Shown here piece by piece: positions 1-13,303 of a stretch of 13,303 nucleotides of DNA. The stretch is from a virus. The position numbers were made by a program, and so were the translations under genes. The notes below the pieces were generated by a model. It saw only the letters and a list, made by a program, of their open reading frames with translations. It made no database searches and had not been told where the DNA came from. The stretch lies in IMG/VR virus record IMGVR_UViG_3300045988_118235; one strand, given 5' to 3'. Position 1 is the first letter of the stretch, and each line of letters begins with the position of its first letter.

Positions 1-35
1 AAATATAAATACCCCCCCCTGCTAGATGGGAATTA
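1..35. repeat. Left inverted terminal repeat (35 bp) and presumed protein-primed replication origin
   Basis: Bases 1-35 (AAATATAAATACCCCCCCCTGCTAGATGGGAATTA) are the exact reverse complement of 13269-13303. The terminus starts with AAA and reiterates AAATA at positions 1-5 and 7-11. It contains a C8 run that is unusual in this AT-rich genome. A TTTGAAAA block follows both copies at slightly different offsets, so the ITR may extend imperfectly. Confidence 0.9.
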
Positions 36-2635: not shown

Positions 2636-3088
2636 ATGAGATTAAAACTTACATTTAACATCAACACAAAGGAGGTGACCTACGAAGACGGGGGCAAAAA
2701 GAAAACTTTTAAAAGCTATTACACTTATTTAAAAGTACCATTTGAAGCACCTGAGGGCGAAGAGGTACCATTTAATTTACATTTTAGACAAGATTGTGAA
2801 AACGCTTACGGTCGTGATTTAAACGGGGTTGTTACCGCTATTGTGGATGTACCTTGGTACGTTGTAGTTAAAAAAGGCAAAACTGAAGATTACACAAAAA
2901 GAGCTTTAGAATTACAAAATGAACTACGTACTAAAGAAAGATTTGATAACATTTGGGTTCATAAAATCTTAGAATACAAACCATTTGAAAAGAAAGAAGA
3001 AAACGACGACGATTTATTAGAATTTGACGTGACAAAAAAGACTAAAGACGTTGAAAACATTAAACCAACCGACGATTTACCATTTTAA
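2636..3088 (+). CDS. Putative single-stranded DNA-binding protein (150 aa) with an acidic C-terminal tail ending in DDLPF
   Basis: The SD is very strong (AAAGGAGG). The N-terminal two thirds look beta-rich. The tail is acidic (EKKEENDDDLLEFD...TDDLPF) and its last residues resemble the bacterial SSB tip DDDIPF. The gene sits in the replication module upstream of the TP and polymerase genes. Confidence 0.45.
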   Translation: MRLKLTFNINTKEVTYEDGGKKKTFKSYYTYLKVPFEAPEGEEVPFNLHFRQDCENAYGRDLNGVVTAIVDVPWYVVVKKGKTEDYTKRALELQNELRTKERFDNIWVHKILEYKPFEKKEENDDDLLEFDVTKKTKDVENIKPTDDLPF

Positions 3089-3100
3089 GGAGATAATAAA

Positions 3101-3364
3101 ATGACAAAAGATATTAATATAACCGATTTTTTCACATATTTTGTAGTCAATTACAAGAAAGATACTAAATATATGGTTTATTTACTAGTATATGGAGGGG
3201 GCAAACTATATATTAATAACGATTTAACCTTTACATATGAACAACCTAATAAAATGAGTTTAATCGGTGTGCTTACTTTATTTGAAGAAATAATTCAATG
3301 CGATTGCGAGAATTTATTAGACATTCTTTATATAAAGGAGGTAAATAATGAAAAAGATTTGTAG
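3101..3364 (+). CDS. Hypothetical protein (87 aa)
   Basis: ATG 3101 lies 8 nt after AGGAG. No motif was recognised. Confidence 0.6.
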   Translation: MTKDINITDFFTYFVVNYKKDTKYMVYLLVYGGGKLYINNDLTFTYEQPNKMSLIGVLTLFEEIIQCDCENLLDILYIKEVNNEKDL

Positions 3365-3614
3365 TGAAGCTTTACAAAAATTTTTAGATACTATACTTCT
3401 TGAAAAAGATAATAGATACTATATTAAATTTATTGGTGAAGAAAAGTATTTATATATATCAAATATATATATAATTGGTAGTTTCGACCGAAAAGTAGAT
3501 ATACATAGCACACCATCGTACTTATATTACTGGGAGGTATTATATATTCTTAATATAATCAAAAAATATGGGGAACAAGAAGAAATAACTAATATAGAAA
3601 TAGGAAAATTTTAA
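3348..3614 (+). CDS. Hypothetical protein (88 aa)
   Basis: ATG 3348 lies 6 nt after GGAGG. It overlaps the upstream gene by 17 nt and shows possible weak similarity to the ORF at 3101. Confidence 0.6.
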   Translation: MKKICSEALQKFLDTILLEKDNRYYIKFIGEEKYLYISNIYIIGSFDRKVDIHSTPSYLYYWEVLYILNIIKKYGEQEEITNIEIGKF

Positions 3615-3616
3615 TT

Positions 3617-4381
3617 ATGCCAAAGAGACTTAAATTAAATTTATCTTACAATGATTTAAATAAAATGTCTCTTGCCGATTTAAAAACCTACGCTATAAAG
3701 CTTAACAATGTTGCAAACTTGAGAGTAAGAAAGCTTAGACAATTTGTGCCTTACTCTCCAGCGTTGTTATCTTATGAAAAAAGCGAATTAGGAACTTTTA
3801 GAATTGGTAAAGAGGCGGATATTAATAGTTTACGTAGAAGTGTTGCAAGAGCTAAACACTTTTTAGACATGGAGACTAGTACGGTTAAAGGTACTATAAA
3901 TGTTACATTACGGACTTTAAAGCGCTTTGGTATAGAGCCTCCCGATTTTAGCAAGAAAGAAAAAAGACCACGAGGGCGACCAAAAGGTTCAAAAAATAAC
4001 AAGAATAAGATTAAAGAAATAAAAGAAAAAAGACCAAGAGGGAGACCAAAAGGCTCAAAAAATAAAAATGCCTATAGTAAATATACCGAGACTATTAAGT
4101 GGTTGTATTCAAAGAGAGAATTATTAAAAGAGTTCTTTGACTTGTATAATAGATACAAAGATTTATATCATGGCGGAGAATTGCCAAGCGATACTATTAA
4201 AGTAGGTATGGATGTATTTTTAGACCTTAAAAACAATTTACTTCAAAAAGTCGGTGACGATTGGATAAATAGAGAAACGGGCGAAATAGTAGACCGAGAA
4301 CAAATTTTTTTTGATATTATGAACCAAAAAATAGAGAGAATGCACGACTATATTTATAGTTCTTACAATCAATATAACTAA
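3617..4381 (+). CDS. Putative terminal protein (protein primer, 254 aa) carrying two tandem AT-hook motifs
   Basis: It lies immediately upstream of the protein-primed DNA polymerase gene with a 2-nt gap, as phi29 gene 3 precedes gene 2. Its size is close to the 266 aa of phi29 TP. The genome has ITRs. KEKRPRGRPKGSKN occurs twice, at aa 114-127 (nt 3956-3997) and aa 136-149 (nt 4022-4063). Confidence 0.5.
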   Translation: MPKRLKLNLSYNDLNKMSLADLKTYAIKLNNVANLRVRKLRQFVPYSPALLSYEKSELGTFRIGKEADINSLRRSVARAKHFLDMETSTVKGTINVTLRTLKRFGIEPPDFSKKEKRPRGRPKGSKNNKNKIKEIKEKRPRGRPKGSKNKNAYSKYTETIKWLYSKRELLKEFFDLYNRYKDLYHGGELPSDTIKVGMDVFLDLKNNLLQKVGDDWINRETGEIVDREQIFFDIMNQKIERMHDYIYSSYNQYN

Positions 4382-4383
4382 AT

Positions 4384-6471
4384 ATGAAACAATGCAATAC
4401 GATTAAGGAGTGTTTAGCCAATGTAAAAAGCTTTAAAGTTTACAAAAAACAATATAGAAATAAATACTTTAATAATCGTATTTGCTTTGATATTGAGGTA
4501 TCTAGTTTCTATGTTGAGGGTATAGAAAAAGAGCCGGTTAAAAGAGCATGTTGTTACGCTTATATTTTGGGTATTGATGGTAACTATAAGATAGGTAGGA
4601 GCTTAGTTGAATTTGTAAAAGATATTAATTATCTTGAGTATGTTTTGCATAAAAAAGACCCTGAGGCGCATATAGTAGTTTGGGTTCATAACTTAGCCTA
4701 CGAGTTCCAATTTATAAGAAAGTATTTTGAAATTAAAGAAATTTTAGCTAACGACGAGAGAAAAATTATATACGCAGTTACTCAAAATAATATTGAATTT
4801 AGATGTAGTTACATGCTAAGTGGTTATTCTTTACGTAAAGTTGGAGAAAATCTAAGACACCATAACGCTAAAAAGATGGTAGGTGATTTAGACTATTCTT
4901 TGTTGAGAGGTTCAACAACTCCACTAACTGAGAAAGAAATAGGATATATTAGAGAAGACTACGAGGTATTAGACGCATACATTGAAGAAGAGTTAGAAAC
5001 TTATTTATATATATCTAGAGTACCATATACCAAAACTGGCAAAGTAAGAAAGTTTTGTCGTAAAGTTTGTAATGAAAAAGGTAACTATAAAAAAAGATAT
5101 ATTAAAAATTTAGTTATCAATGACGCTCAAGAGTATATGTTAATGCGTCGCGCTTTCATGGGAGGCTTTACACATGCTAACTCATTGGCTGTTAATAACT
5201 TAATTAGAGATGTAACATCTATCGACTTTACTAGCTCTTATCCCGCCGTTATGGTGAGTGAGATGTTCCCTATGAGTCGAGGTCAATTAATAGAGATTAA
5301 ATCTTTAGACCAAATAAAAGAATTATCTAAAAGAAACTGTCTTATATTTGATATAGAGTTTTGGAATTTAGAAAGTACTTTTATTTATGAGTCCTATTTG
5401 TCAAGTTCACATGGTATAACTGAGGGAGCTACTACAATTAACAATGGTAGAATAGTTATGACTAAATATTTAAAAACTACAATAACTAACATAGATTTAG
5501 ATATAATAGAGAAAGTTTATAAATGGACTAAATGTAAAATAGGTTTGTGCTACATTTATAAGAAATGGTACCTCCCTACTCCATTTGTAAAAAGTATCTT
5601 AATGTTATATAAAGACAAAACAACTTTAAAAGGTATTGACGACAAGATAGCCGAATACATGAACTCAAAAGAAATGTTAAACTCTTGTTATGGTATGACT
5701 GTTACCGATATTATTAAACCCGAGGTGGAATATGACGACGAGAAGGGATGGCATACCGAAGAAATGACACTCGATAAACGAGGAGATTTAGTAGAAAAGT
5801 ATAACAATCAGCGTTCGAGGTTTTTATTCTATCCATGGGGTGTATTTATCACAGCGTATGCAAGGCGAAACTTGTGGTCGGGTATTTTAGAATTTGGAGA
5901 AGATTATTGTTATAGCGATACCGACTCAATCAAAGGAATTAATTATGAAAAACACAAGAATTATGTTGATAAATACAACGATATATGTTATCATAAATTA
6001 GAGGTAGCAATGAGTTATCATAAACTTGATATATCATTGTGCGCTCCAACAACTATAAAAGGAGAAAAGAAAATCATAGGCGTTTGGGATTATGACGGTC
6101 ATTACGATATGTTCAAAACTTTAGGAGCTAAGCGCTATATGGTATATAACAACAAAGGATTAACATTAACTATATCAGGAGTTAATAAAACAAAGGCAGT
6201 ACCTTATTTACTCAAAAAGTATGAAAACGACATACAACAAATATTTGATAGTTTTAGTGATGGATTTGAGGTACCCTCACCGCATGCTGGCAAGCAAATT
6301 CTTACATATATTGACTACGAAACGAGCGGAGAGTTTATGGACTATTTAGGCAAGAAACAAACGTATCATGAGTTGAGCTCGGTACATATGGAAGAGGGAA
6401 GCTATACATTGACAATGAGTGACGAGTACTTAAAATTCTTAGCGGAAGGAGTGAAGATAGATTATGTCTAA
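4384..6471 (+). CDS. Family B DNA polymerase of the protein-primed (phi29 gp2-like) type, 695 aa
   Basis: Exo I is FDIE (D36, E38). Exo II is HNLAYEF (aa 102-108). Exo III is YIREDYEV. Motif A is DFTSSYP. Motif B is KEMLNSCYG. Motif C is YSDTDS (nt 5911-5928). The KxY motif is GAKRYM. Long inserts between the motifs are consistent with TPR1 and TPR2. Confidence 0.95.
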   Translation: MKQCNTIKECLANVKSFKVYKKQYRNKYFNNRICFDIEVSSFYVEGIEKEPVKRACCYAYILGIDGNYKIGRSLVEFVKDINYLEYVLHKKDPEAHIVVWVHNLAYEFQFIRKYFEIKEILANDERKIIYAVTQNNIEFRCSYMLSGYSLRKVGENLRHHNAKKMVGDLDYSLLRGSTTPLTEKEIGYIREDYEVLDAYIEEELETYLYISRVPYTKTGKVRKFCRKVCNEKGNYKKRYIKNLVINDAQEYMLMRRAFMGGFTHANSLAVNNLIRDVTSIDFTSSYPAVMVSEMFPMSRGQLIEIKSLDQIKELSKRNCLIFDIEFWNLESTFIYESYLSSSHGITEGATTINNGRIVMTKYLKTTITNIDLDIIEKVYKWTKCKIGLCYIYKKWYLPTPFVKSILMLYKDKTTLKGIDDKIAEYMNSKEMLNSCYGMTVTDIIKPEVEYDDEKGWHTEEMTLDKRGDLVEKYNNQRSRFLFYPWGVFITAYARRNLWSGILEFGEDYCYSDTDSIKGINYEKHKNYVDKYNDICYHKLEVAMSYHKLDISLCAPTTIKGEKKIIGVWDYDGHYDMFKTLGAKRYMVYNNKGLTLTISGVNKTKAVPYLLKKYENDIQQIFDSFSDGFEVPSPHAGKQILTYIDYETSGEFMDYLGKKQTYHELSSVHMEEGSYTLTMSDEYLKFLAEGVKIDYV
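6409..6436 (+). promoter_or_regulatory. Candidate internal promoter upstream of the packaging and virion genes
   Basis: TTGACA at 6409-6414, a 16-nt spacer, and TAAAAT at 6431-6436, lying 28 nt before the ATPase start. It sits inside the polymerase coding sequence and could be a chance match in AT-rich DNA. Confidence 0.3.
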
Positions 6472-11201: not shown

Positions 11202-11423
11202 ATGAAATTAAAAGAAGTCTTAAAATTAATTAACAATGAATTTATTAATTATACTATATACCGTGATAAAAAAGTTGTTGCTCACTTTTCTACAAGATAT
11301 CAAAAAGAAGTAGAAGAGATATCAAGACGATACGGACACTATAACGTTACAAATATTGGAGCTTTCATGACATGTGATTATGAGAGCGTTGTAACACTAA
11401 CACTTGAGGAAGTATTGTTATGA
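11202..11423 (+). CDS. Hypothetical protein (73 aa)
   Basis: ATG 11202 follows an AAAGGAG SD. It joins the tail knob gene through an ATGA overlap. Confidence 0.6.
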   Translation: MKLKEVLKLINNEFINYTIYRDKKVVAHFSTRYQKEVEEISRRYGHYNVTNIGAFMTCDYESVVTLTLEEVLL

Positions 11424-13222
11424 AGATAACTTTATTCCAAAATGTCAGTGAACGCAACCAAATGGACAAGGATTTAACTAAAGTTAAAGATATTGACGGC
11501 AAGTTCAAACAATCCACTAATATTATGAGTCCTATATTAGTATTGAGTTATGCAACACTTCCCGATTTTAATTATATATATATTGAAGAATTAGCTAGAT
11601 ATTATTTTGTTGACAGTATCACAAGTATTAACGAGGGGTTATGGCAAATCAATTGTAGTGAGGATGTATTAGAGACTTACGGTACGGCAATTTTAAATCT
11701 TAGTGCTTATGTGACAAGAAATGAATATGAGTATAATGATTATATAGAAGATAAATATTTATTAAGAACTGCTAGAAAATTATATGATATTATAGAGCCT
11801 TTAGACCTAGACGATGGACATAACTTGTTTATGAATTTTGACTCATTCGATACTAGTAATTCTCATGACGGAGCACCTTATAATATATCTAGTGAAACAA
11901 GAGCATTTTGTTATACAATCTCTACAGCTAATAAATGGGGTGGTAGAGATGTAACTGATACTACAATCTCATCGGGTCATAGACTTGATATTATGGAAGC
12001 TTATACTGATTTTAATGATACAAACTCAAAGTATGGTATAAACAAGTACGGTAAAGCTTTTTATGGCGACTCATTTACTAAAATATGGGCAATGAATAAT
12101 ACTAATATTCAATCTTTAGGCTCTTTATTAGAAGCTGAAATGAACTCTCCAATAGGTGATAAAAGAATGTATCAAAACGTTGGTTCAATGATTAACGTTA
12201 TACGTGTATATCCTTTTTCAATACCTGAATACTATAAATATTGTGGTATTAGTGAGTCGAGATTACCTCAAGGCAACTTCCCACCTTGGATAGAAGATCC
12301 TTTAGGAGACTCAAGAAATATAGATGTTGTAACGGTTGGAGATAGTCCTATACCAAACACTATAACCGACCAAAAAAATACAATAACTCAATATCCATAC
12401 AGTTATTATCAAATAACAGGTTGGGTATTACCTCAACAAGCTATGAGTTGTAAAATAGCAACATTCCCTTTTGACAATACTAACATATTATACAATAACT
12501 ATTTGGACTTCTCACCATATACCGTATTACACTTATATGTCCCATTCTTTGGATATATCGACTTATCACCAAACATTTGTGTTGGGACTCAAGTAAATGT
12601 TTATCTATCAGTTGATTTTAATTCAGGGAACGCCACAATATATGTTACATCTAAGATTAAAGAACAAGAAACATTAATAACAACAAAACAAACAAGTATA
12701 GGATTTGACTTAGCATTTGGTGTTTCTAACATAGCTGAATTAAACCGTTCTACTAAATACACTAGTATAAAAGAAACAATAAAAACCGTAGCAGGTACTT
12801 TAGCTACTTTTGCGTCAATGACCGCTTTTGCTACAGGACATATAGGAGCGGGTAAAATGTTTGCGGTCGCAGGTGGTACTGCAATAGCAGGTGTTAATAG
12901 CGCTATAAATGTTGCTCAATCCGAGAGTATGCCCATTAATGCTACAGCTATAGATGGTGGTGGAAGTGAAAACGGAGCTTCTAACTTTATAGCTCCAAAA
13001 GGAATATTTGTTCTTAGAGAAAGAGTAGAACAATATAGACCTGCTTCTAATTATTCTAAATTCTTAGGTAGACCGCTAGAGGTACAAAGGAGAATAGGTA
13101 AATTACATGGCTTTACTCAAGTTGGTAGCATACACATTGAGGGAACTGATTTTGTTAAAGCTACTGAACAAGAAAAACAATTAATAGAAGATACTTTAAA
13201 AAATGGTTTTATAATCAGGTGA
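11420..13222 (+). CDS. Tail knob / distal tail tube protein, phi29 gp9-like, 600 aa
   Basis: The length nearly equals the 599 aa of phi29 gp9. The conserved-looking N-terminus is MKITLFQNVSERNQMDKDL...FNYIYIEELARYYFVDSI. An Ala/Gly-rich hydrophobic segment at aa 457-499 sits at the same relative position as the membrane-active gp9 loop. Confidence 0.65.
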   Translation: MKITLFQNVSERNQMDKDLTKVKDIDGKFKQSTNIMSPILVLSYATLPDFNYIYIEELARYYFVDSITSINEGLWQINCSEDVLETYGTAILNLSAYVTRNEYEYNDYIEDKYLLRTARKLYDIIEPLDLDDGHNLFMNFDSFDTSNSHDGAPYNISSETRAFCYTISTANKWGGRDVTDTTISSGHRLDIMEAYTDFNDTNSKYGINKYGKAFYGDSFTKIWAMNNTNIQSLGSLLEAEMNSPIGDKRMYQNVGSMINVIRVYPFSIPEYYKYCGISESRLPQGNFPPWIEDPLGDSRNIDVVTVGDSPIPNTITDQKNTITQYPYSYYQITGWVLPQQAMSCKIATFPFDNTNILYNNYLDFSPYTVLHLYVPFFGYIDLSPNICVGTQVNVYLSVDFNSGNATIYVTSKIKEQETLITTKQTSIGFDLAFGVSNIAELNRSTKYTSIKETIKTVAGTLATFASMTAFATGHIGAGKMFAVAGGTAIAGVNSAINVAQSESMPINATAIDGGGSENGASNFIAPKGIFVLRERVEQYRPASNYSKFLGRPLEVQRRIGKLHGFTQVGSIHIEGTDFVKATEQEKQLIEDTLKNGFIIR

Positions 13223-13226
13223 TTAT

Positions 13227-13258
13227 AGCTCATGGGATTTACTCTCATGGGCTTTTTT
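13227..13258 (+). terminator. Rho-independent terminator at the end of the single transcription direction
   Basis: The stem pairs GCTCATG (13228-13234) with CATGGGC (13246-13252), giving 7 bp with one G-U pair. The loop is 11 nt and is followed by T6 (13253-13258). Confidence 0.6.
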
Positions 13259-13268
13259 CAAATATAAA

Positions 13269-13303
13269 TAATTCCCATCTAGCAGGGGGGGGTATTTATA
13301 TTT
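13269..13303. repeat. Right inverted terminal repeat (35 bp)
   Basis: It is the exact reverse complement of bases 1-35. Confidence 0.9.

Follow-up and report, generated by a model that had tools for sequence, protein, structure and literature searches.

Genome organization

The window, i.e., the whole 13,303-bp stretch of DNA analysed here, is the complete, linear, phi29-like genome of a human-gut phage. All its long ORFs are on the plus strand, and its GC content is 31% overall (69% AT), ranging from 22 to 38% along the window. Both genome ends carry a perfect 35-bp inverted terminal repeat (ITR), AAATATAAATACCCCCCCCTGCTAGATGGGAATTA, which begins with AAA; at each end, bp 1-11 are purely A/T, and an AATT follows the GC-rich ITR core. 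A/T tracts of at least 6 bp occur 428 times in the 13.3 kb. ORF254, which encodes a putative terminal protein (TP), the protein primer that stays covalently bound to genome ends, terminates 2 nt ahead of the gene for a family-B DNA polymerase, PolB (Table 1). PolB belongs to the protein-primed type by the combined evidence of Pfam and PHROG; a phmmer search of PDB sequences gave no match at 1e-3. Further downstream lie genes for a gp16-type packaging ATPase, a phi29-type connector, a phi29-like major capsid protein and a tail protein, recognized by Pfam and PHROG. An Rfam search of the window found neither a pRNA nor any other family, and ORF150 displayed no similarity to the phi29 SSB, p5.

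By PolB, the closest isolates form the Astrithrvirus group, with 43-44% amino acid identity: Salmonella phages astrithr and Astrid, Acinetobacter phage Phanie, Pectobacterium DU_PP_III and Enterobacter Entb_47. Human-gut metagenomes contain relatives that range from near-identical to more distant. A scan of IMG/VR with the ITR core ATAAATACCCCCCCC, aimed at the relatives' ends, returned unrelated loci only. Related GTDB contigs are scattered over MAGs of Clostridia, Bacteroidales, Melainabacteria and even Methanobrevibacter, making the host labels unreliable.

Table 1. Coordinates of the features discussed in the text (window numbering)
Feature	Coordinates	Strand	Basis
Left inverted terminal repeat, AAATATAAATA-CCCCCCCC-TGCTAGATGGGAATTA	1..35	.	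Perfect 35-bp ITR
ORF254, putative terminal protein (TP), 254 aa	3617..4381	+	ORF call; family directly upstream of PolB
N-terminal helical domain, conserved, aa 1-110, charge +11	3617..3946	+	BLASTP homology, invariant columns, AF2
T87-S88-T89, candidate priming residues	3875..3883	+	Conservation; between model helices 69-84 and 90-103
AT-hook 1, KEKRPRGRPKGSKN, aa 114-127	3956..3997	+	Translation; Pfam AT_hook
Inter-hook spacer NKNKIKEI, basic, aa 128-135	3998..4021	+	Sequence varies between lineages (alignments)
AT-hook 2, KEKRPRGRPKGSKN, aa 136-149	4022..4063	+	Translation; 13-mer KRPRGRPKGSKNK = HMGA1 hook 2
C-terminal helical domain, variable, aa 150-254, charge -4	4064..4381	+	AF2 helices 150-250; allele comparison
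PolB, family-B DNA polymerase, protein-primed (organellar and viral) type	4384..6471	+	Pfam DNA_pol_B_2, E 4.9e-11; phrog_1907, 1e-61
Right inverted terminal repeat	13269..13303	.	Partner of 1..35

A protein family adjoining PolB

Searches of Pfam, PHROG and NCBIfam assign ORF254 to no family, and tblastn against 50,697 phage records yields no match at E 0.01. Its homology to astrithr gp02 and Phanie PHANIE_0020 is visible only in pairwise comparisons and by profile: the homology covers the N-terminal ~100 residues, of which BLASTP aligns ~80 aa at 31-34% identity, and the three proteins have in common the motifs ANxR..L..SPA..F..F..TSTV.G and FFxLYN. A profile free of the AT-hooks described below retrieved 2,171 clustered-database proteins, and an exhaustive HMMER search puts the size of the family at 2,150 when counted as representatives at 50% identity; for 759, E is 1e-10 or lower. 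Members reach profile E values down to 1e-78, those of the window's clade lying between 1e-51 and 1e-83; ORF254 has both the family signature and the position upstream of PolB.

This position is a property of the family at large. Among 160 PolB-relative loci inspected (half of them from IMG/VR and half on genome or MAG contigs, 80 each), 149 contain a family member, and 140 of the 150 family genes found there end no more than 150 nt from the PolB start. PolB has a neighbor of the same family in astrithr, in Phanie and in metagenomic relatives, with synteny kept, e.g., in L001, L002, L003, L006, L008, L018 and L019. The family is large and has hitherto been without annotation or a model in Pfam, PHROG or NCBIfam.

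An AlphaFold2 model of ORF254, computed from a 40-sequence alignment (mean pLDDT 77), depicts two helical domains joined by a disordered segment. The helices of the N-domain, residues 11-103, are modeled with pLDDT of 80-92; residues 112-149, flanked by confident helices, have pLDDT below 50, are predicted to be disordered and carry a net charge of +16. In an alignment of 139 family representatives, three hydroxyl residues, and no others, are conserved family-wide: T87 (94%), S88 (94%) and T89 (84%). The hook columns, by contrast, are filled in just 2-3% of these representatives (the window protein, P0009 and P0011), which identifies the hooks as an insertion at the domain hinge.

Two AT-hooks in the hinge

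The disordered segment contains two identical copies of KEKRPRGRPKGSKN, both of which are found in the translation exactly where the original prediction had put them. The predicted distance of 22 residues (66 nt) holds from start to start, with the 8 residues NKNKIKEI left between the copies. At the DNA level, the copies are identical at 39 of 42 nt, and the differences, CGA/AGA twice and GGT/GGC once, are synonymous in 3 cases of 3, again as predicted. An R-G-R-P core flanked by Lys/Arg is thus present twice, as KRPRGRPKGSKN; a six-frame translation of the window contains no other RGRP strings, and an exact 14-residue repeat is far beyond chance.

The resemblance to the second AT-hook of HMGA1, to which the original prediction had pointed, is real. 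The 48-aa hook segment has a single match among PDB sequences, the second DNA-binding domain of HMG-I/Y (2EZD/2EZE), in which PKRPRGRPKGSKNKGA aligns with EKRPRGRPKGSKNKNA of the window protein over an identical 13-mer, KRPRGRPKGSKNK (13/13 residues). The profile check that had been suggested gives a more qualified answer: Pfam AT_hook (PF02178), a model of 13 positions, detects both copies, at a score (16.6 bits on the 48-aa segment and 10.2 on the whole protein) slightly below the curated cut-off of 17.4. Pfam detection and identity to a structurally solved hook together argue that the motifs are canonical AT-hooks, an assignment that is sound at the level of sequence.

The further suggestion that the hooks are eukaryote-like does not single them out. 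In a back-translated scan of IMG/VR, RGRPKGSKN occurs in at least 120 loci, and in many unrelated viral proteins. The matches listed include 111 ORFs of many kinds, terminase-like and giant-virus ligase-like proteins among them; 26 of the 113 listed occurrences of RGRPKGSKN are in ORFs with two or more GRP motifs, and none of the matches listed lies next to a PolB relative. Unrelated metagenomic proteins (P0012-P0015) have 3-4 tandem copies of the same hook peptide. Because the motif is so widespread in viral and metagenomic proteins, the HMGA1 identity reflects a general extended AT-hook consensus. The claim of novelty, by contrast, stands as far as the searchable literature goes: no paper that combines AT-hooks with terminal proteins or protein-primed replication was found there, and RGR and GRP motifs are absent from the TPs of both phi29 and Cp-1.

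Distribution and evolution of the hooks

All 11 clusters (P0001-P0011) of the window's clade, whose proteins are 246-268 aa long and as little as 39% identical, have the hook pair. The pair was found in none of 109 other family proteins, in none of 147 further representatives, one of which has a weak single KKKVGRPAEP, and in none of the family genes of PolB-relative loci outside the clade, where the only semblance is a weak KVGRPKKDP. The hooks are a lineage-specific insertion, found only in the gut lineage of the window; the infectious phages astrithr and Phanie, like most family members, do without them. Since the hookless relatives include contigs with a GC content of 25-30%, hooks are no general requirement of AT-rich members, and base composition alone is an insufficient explanation for their presence.

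Within the clade, the peptide is kept while its codons drift. But for the two core changes given below, RGRPKGSK is retained in both hooks down to 39% identity with synonymous sites near saturation, which bears out the proposal, made from the synonymous differences between the two copies, that selection acts on the peptide. Compared with the divergent alleles L006, L017 and L003, the hook codons of the window have pS of 0.56-0.72 and pN of 0.12-0.23, all of the non-synonymous change being located in the flanks; in the same comparisons, pN is 0.30-0.43 for the spacer and 0.43-0.45 for the C-domain. Close relatives have accumulated many synonymous hook changes (GGG/GGA, AAA/AAG, CCA/CCT, GGT/GGC/GGG) and only two amino acid changes in the core, R to Q in hook 1 (L008, L013) and K to R in hook 2 (P0010, L017). 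Hook 1 varies as RSRGRP, KTRGRP or RPQGRP (P to S/T; R to Q) in these relatives; RPQGRP is weak evidence of relaxation at most, because H-NS employs QGR functionally (PMC8476142). Both hooks are retained in both C-domain allele types and in P0011, the 39%-identical protein. The substitution pattern indicates that the hook peptide is under purifying selection.

The duplication that gave rise to the pair is not a recent one, in line with the original prediction: synonymous codons specific to hook 1 or to hook 2 are common to relatives at ~94% nucleotide identity. Orthologous hooks of the window and L014 to L016 match at 42-43 of 45 nt, better than the paralogous copies of the window (41/45), and the duplication therefore predates L014-L016. 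The order is inverted in the L003 lineage, where paralogous hooks match at 34/45 and orthologues at just 25-29/45, a pattern that hints at concerted evolution or re-duplication.

The hinge is also where the gene is mosaic. Between the window and L006/L012, nucleotide homology is lost around the end of hook 2 or shortly beyond it (~4066-4150) and returns at 4381, from where PolB is 94.5% identical. Phages with PolB 94-97% identical to that of the window have a C-domain only ~35% identical to the window's, and two allele types of this domain are seen. These alignments indicate that the hook segment marks a recombination boundary, with the C-domain swapped as a module.

Is ORF254 the terminal protein?

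We consider it quite probable that ORF254 is the TP of Astrithrvirus-like mini-podophages; synteny, protein size and the family-wide linkage to PolB all point this way. As the original prediction noted, the gene sits where phi29-like genomes have their TP gene, the TP genes of phi29 and Cp-1 being directly upstream of PolB. ORF254 adjoins a PolB of the protein-primed type in a linear genome with ITRs, the context expected for a TP. In phi29, the TP priming residue, Ser232, is in the C-terminal domain. If the family is that of TPs, its priming residue is probably part of T87-S88-T89, in the break between two modeled helices, and priming from the N-domain would represent a domain order unlike that of phi29. 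The counterpart gene of Astrid, Phanie and DU_PP_III has been labeled the counterpart of phi29 p3 (PMC11476376).

The similarity to the phi29 and Cp-1 TPs that the original prediction proposed to look for did not materialize. The hhalign probability is below 1% for both proteins (0.2% for phi29), Pfam Phi-29_GP3 is absent from ORF254 even at E 10, and the family profile matches no PDB sequence. A Foldseek search of the PDB gave a best E of 0.9, the phi29 TP (2EX3) not being among the matches of a program for which helical bundles are hard, and against BFVD it retrieved only uncharacterized proteins of Podoviridae and Tectiviridae sp.

A family without homology to any proven TP could instead be some other replication or genome-organizing accessory cotranscribed with PolB, such as an origin-binding protein, a p6-like protein or a packaging adaptor, the DNA binding of which the hooks would strengthen. 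The N-domain is basic in such different members as the window protein (+11) and those of astrithr and Phanie (+9 each), as would suit a protein of this kind, and the C-domain is swapped between phages whose PolB is ~95% identical, which is unexpected for a priming domain that docks closely on the polymerase. We nevertheless regard an accessory role as unlikely. TPs diverge past sequence recognition, HHpred matches linking only those of phi29 and Nf (PMC11476376). The replication modules of astrithr (15 genes) and Phanie (13 genes) contain no other TP-sized candidate, the gene is nearly always contiguous with PolB, and the conserved TST hydroxyls could prime.

Proposed role of the hooks

The reading that we lean towards, by a little, is that ORF254 is the TP and that the hooks give it an AT-selective affinity for DNA that aids protein-primed initiation. 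In this lineage only, the ~40-residue, disordered, +16 segment with its two hooks has been inserted into the hinge between the N- and C-domains; from there, the R-G-R core of each hook could enter a 5-6 bp A/T tract through its narrow minor groove, like the HMGA1 peptide (2EZD); the HMGA1-DNA structures have the RGR core in the minor groove (PMC8476142). With two hooks 22 residues apart, binding would be bivalent, AT-selective and not site-specific; the ~11 residues between the cores, which could span roughly one helical turn, would allow the pair to occupy a single long A/T tract or two neighboring tracts. The hooks may play the part that falls to a basic N-terminal domain in the TP of phi29; this domain binds DNA non-specifically and is required for nucleoid localization and efficient replication, its DNA-binding mutants displaying a higher Km for the initiating dATP (PMC4974454, PMC4357725). 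By analogy, AT-rich DNA would retain the TP, be it free or in a heterodimer with the polymerase, as well as the TP-capped genome; this DNA could belong to the host nucleoid or to the phage itself, whose genome is 69% AT and has only A/T in the first 11 bp of each end. Protein-primed replication would then be initiated more efficiently. Binding of this kind would be AT-selective rather than origin-specific, and hooks alone cannot single out the ends, because A/T tracts of 6 bp or more are found at 428 places in the genome.

In phi29, origin activation is the job of a separate protein, p6. A bolder version of the proposal, which has a rather small chance of being correct, would have the TP take over this job: a modular, sequence-selective A/T minor-groove device, brought in as a cassette where a recombination junction lies, would dock the TP-polymerase complex or the parental TP on the all-A/T 11-bp termini or on the adjacent AATT tracts of the ITR. 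If true, ORF254 would be the first TP to have a DNA-targeting motif that is defined and portable, and a natural template for engineering TP-primed amplification.

Alternatively, the hooks might act on host DNA or nucleoid proteins instead of on the initiation of replication, competing with H-NS-, Lsr2- or Rok-like xenogeneic silencers before these can cover the AT-rich genome on its entry, or anchoring the end of the ejected genome to the nucleoid. The silencers Lsr2, H-NS and Bv3F insert RGR or QGR into AT-rich DNA's minor groove (PMC8476142), the phage has a GC content of just 31%, and a parental TP comes into the cell on the DNA to which it is bound, that of phi29 localizing to the nucleoid (PMC4974454). 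This role is improbable: relatives that are equally AT-rich lack hooks, and the MAG bin labels that would have to name the host are inconsistent.

Still less probable is that the segment is a flexible, polycationic hinge, used in condensation or packaging or simply tolerated as an insertion at a recombination junction, in which the appearance of AT-hooks is incidental or weakly functional. The segment does coincide exactly with the N/C mosaic breakpoint, its spacer and flanks vary freely, the flank and core of hook 1 vary in close relatives (P to S/T, R to Q), and some sites of the phi29 TP accept inserted peptides (PMC5079584). A need for positive charge alone would not, however, fix G, P, G and S, and RGRPKGSK is kept in both copies despite saturated synonymous sites and is identical to a structurally proven minor-groove binder. 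Finally, a recent horizontal acquisition from a vertebrate HMGA gene, to which a phage from the human gut with 13 residues identical to human HMGA1 hook 2 may seem to attest, is effectively refuted by the frequency of the same extended consensus in viral contigs (at least 120 IMG/VR loci) and in P0012-P0015, by a similarity that ends at the hook, by phage-like (AAA/AGA-rich) codon usage, and by the age of the hooks, which are common to lineages at 39% protein identity.

Significance and comparison with known systems

With the hooks read as an aid to protein-primed initiation, ORF254 brings a known motif and a known functional need together in a new combination. In the TPs studied so far, the DNA binding needed for nucleoid targeting and efficient initiation resides in basic helical domains that are ill-defined; a TP with a portable, mutable and well-understood motif would be a clean handle for separating DNA tethering from priming. 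The protein may also exemplify modular TP evolution, with a disordered cassette at a hinge that doubles as a recombination breakpoint, and suggests how tools for phi29-type TP-primed amplification or for gene delivery might be designed. Beyond the hooks, a large family of TP candidates is brought to light, with its TSTV motif as a candidate priming site.

The proteins of the Astrithrvirus group are the nearest points of comparison. Astrithr gp02 (YP_009857578) and Phanie PHANIE_0020 have a homologous N-domain (31-34% identity) and an identical gene position, but at 197 and 202 aa, respectively, they are shorter and lack hooks; the window protein differs from them by an insertion of ~40-60 aa and a divergent C-domain.

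The TPs of phi29 (p3) and Cp-1 resemble ORF254 in context and build: each gene immediately precedes PolB on a linear, ITR-bearing genome, and the proteins, of 266, 230 and 254 aa, are all-alpha. Their similarity to ORF254 in sequence or fold is undetectable, and both are devoid of RGR and GRP. Phi29 p3 offers a functional parallel in its basic DNA-binding element, to which nucleoid localization and initiation are ascribed (PMC4974454, PMC4357725), the roles proposed here by analogy for the hook segment. This element is an N-terminal helical domain in phi29, whereas in the window protein it would be an internal disordered insertion; likewise, the priming domain of the phi29 TP is C-terminal, whereas the conserved hydroxyls of the window's family are in the N-domain.

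HMGA1 (HMG-I/Y) matches the window protein in the 13 residues of KRPRGRPKGSKNK (hook 2; 2EZD/2EZE), in the disordered context and in having multiple hooks spaced 20-30 residues apart. The homology is confined to the hook, for which DNA binding in the window protein is predicted from the sequence, and the settings are different: HMGA1 is a free-standing chromatin protein with an acidic tail, whereas the hooks of the window protein reside inside a helical phage protein.

HMGA-like and AT-hook-like DNA binders also exist in bacteria. The C-terminal domain of Myxococcus CarD is disordered and has four AT-hooks (PMC6061681). CarD, Lsr2, H-NS and Bv3F serve as transcription factors or silencers and do not prime replication; their homology to ORF254 is confined to the motif. 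In fission-yeast Orc4 and EBV EBNA1, as cited in PMC1950889, AT-hooks direct the protein to AT-rich DNA or tether the viral genome to chromosomes. These proteins are eukaryotic and unrelated to ORF254, and the analogy is one of mechanism only; in both, AT-hooks are appended to a protein of replication initiation or genome maintenance, the arrangement proposed here for a phage TP.

Modular Exchange and a Conserved Motif in the Putative Terminal Protein

For the C-terminal half of the putative terminal protein (TP) there are two allele types or more, which are only ~35% identical to each other (the window versus relatives L006, L012 and L017) and occur across phages that share their N-domain and PolB at 94–97% identity. 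One breakpoint of the exchange lies at or just past hook 2, the other at the start codon of PolB; this pattern of alleles is modular recombination. Within the N-domain, the TSTV.G motif (T87-S88-T89) shows the top conservation in the entire TP family (~2,150 representatives) and contains the family's only conserved hydroxyl residues. TSTV.G is a candidate for the priming site, which would place priming in the N-domain of this family, unlike in phi29.

Features of the window discussed in this section
Feature	Position (nt)	Description
Inverted terminal repeat (ITR)	1–35 and 13269–13303	perfect, 35 bp
Short direct repeats	113–148 and 156–191	rich in TACTACTAAT-like units; just within the left end, ahead of the first promoter
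Long direct repeats	171–264 and 542–635	2 x 94 nt, 83% identical
150-aa ORF	2636–3088	acidic C-terminal tail, last residues DDLPF
88-aa gene	3348–3614	immediately upstream of the TP gene
TSTV.G motif (T87-S88-T89)	3875–3883	TP N-domain
TP C-terminal half	4064–4381	exchanged between allele types

AT-Hook Variation and Distribution

Among close relatives, hook 1 varies more than hook 2 does (loci L008 and L013; protein clusters P0001, P0005 and P0008) and appears as RPQGRP, RSRGRP or KTRGRP; the QGR form is used by H-NS (PMC8476142). Tandem AT-hooks, in three to five copies, are also present in unrelated metagenomic proteins (P0012–P0015) and, among the IMG/VR matches listed, in L022, L067, L075 and L114, all with the same extended consensus, (K/R)RGRPKGSKNK, repeated with a period of 25–33 residues. 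Such hooks recur, again among the IMG/VR matches listed, in a terminase-like ORF (L051) and in giant-virus ligase-like ORFs (L027, L031). AT-hook cassettes seem to have been widely added onto viral proteins that act on DNA.

Genome Ends and Early Promoters

The window is an entire linear genome. From the terminus inward, its ITR consists of an 11-mer made up wholly of A and T (AAATATAAATA), a C8 run, and TGCTAGATGGGAATTA. In the hookless isolate Phanie, the ITR (GGGTTATCCGCCCCCCTCC...; L002, 1–171) has a C-run about as far from the terminus as in the window, and CCCCCC opens the sequence of L018, a truncated contig from a hookless relative. A poly-C element close to the genome termini may be an origin feature that the phages of this group have conserved. 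Each of the 94-nt repeats contains a consensus promoter, TTGACA-17 nt-TATAAT, with a Shine-Dalgarno sequence and then a start codon downstream of it; the pair resemble a strong early promoter that has been duplicated. This consensus suggests that the host uses promoters of the sigma-70 type and is not of the Bacteroidota type.

Complete-looking mini-podophage contigs of 11–14 kb that belong to this group are found in GTDB metagenome-assembled genomes of very different phyla (L142–L221), a Methanobrevibacter bin included. Their scatter across phyla is probably a binning artefact; the contigs reveal that the group is abundant yet unannotated in gut metagenomes.

Small Genes, Lysis and Helper Dependence

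The end of the 150-aa ORF recalls the C-terminal tip of bacterial SSBs; the protein has no matches in Pfam, PHROG or NCBIfam and no similarity to phi29 p5. It is conserved in relatives: L006 and L008 have a gene of 150–151 aa in the corresponding place. The 88-aa gene has no nucleotide-level alignment to L006, L008 or L014, which are elsewhere 84–96% identical to the window, and its place is taken by an 84-aa gene in L006 and L008, identifying a variable slot.

Rfam finds neither a pRNA nor any other family in the window. No endolysin is recognised in 11420–13303 or elsewhere in the whole window, which ends directly past the gene for a 600-aa tail protein; in the hookless relatives L018, L019, astrithr and Phanie, by contrast, the large tail gene is followed by one for a CHAP/CW_7 or amidase lysin. 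Phanie reportedly requires the tail of a helper myophage (PMC11476376), and a similar helper dependence is therefore worth considering for the window's clade.
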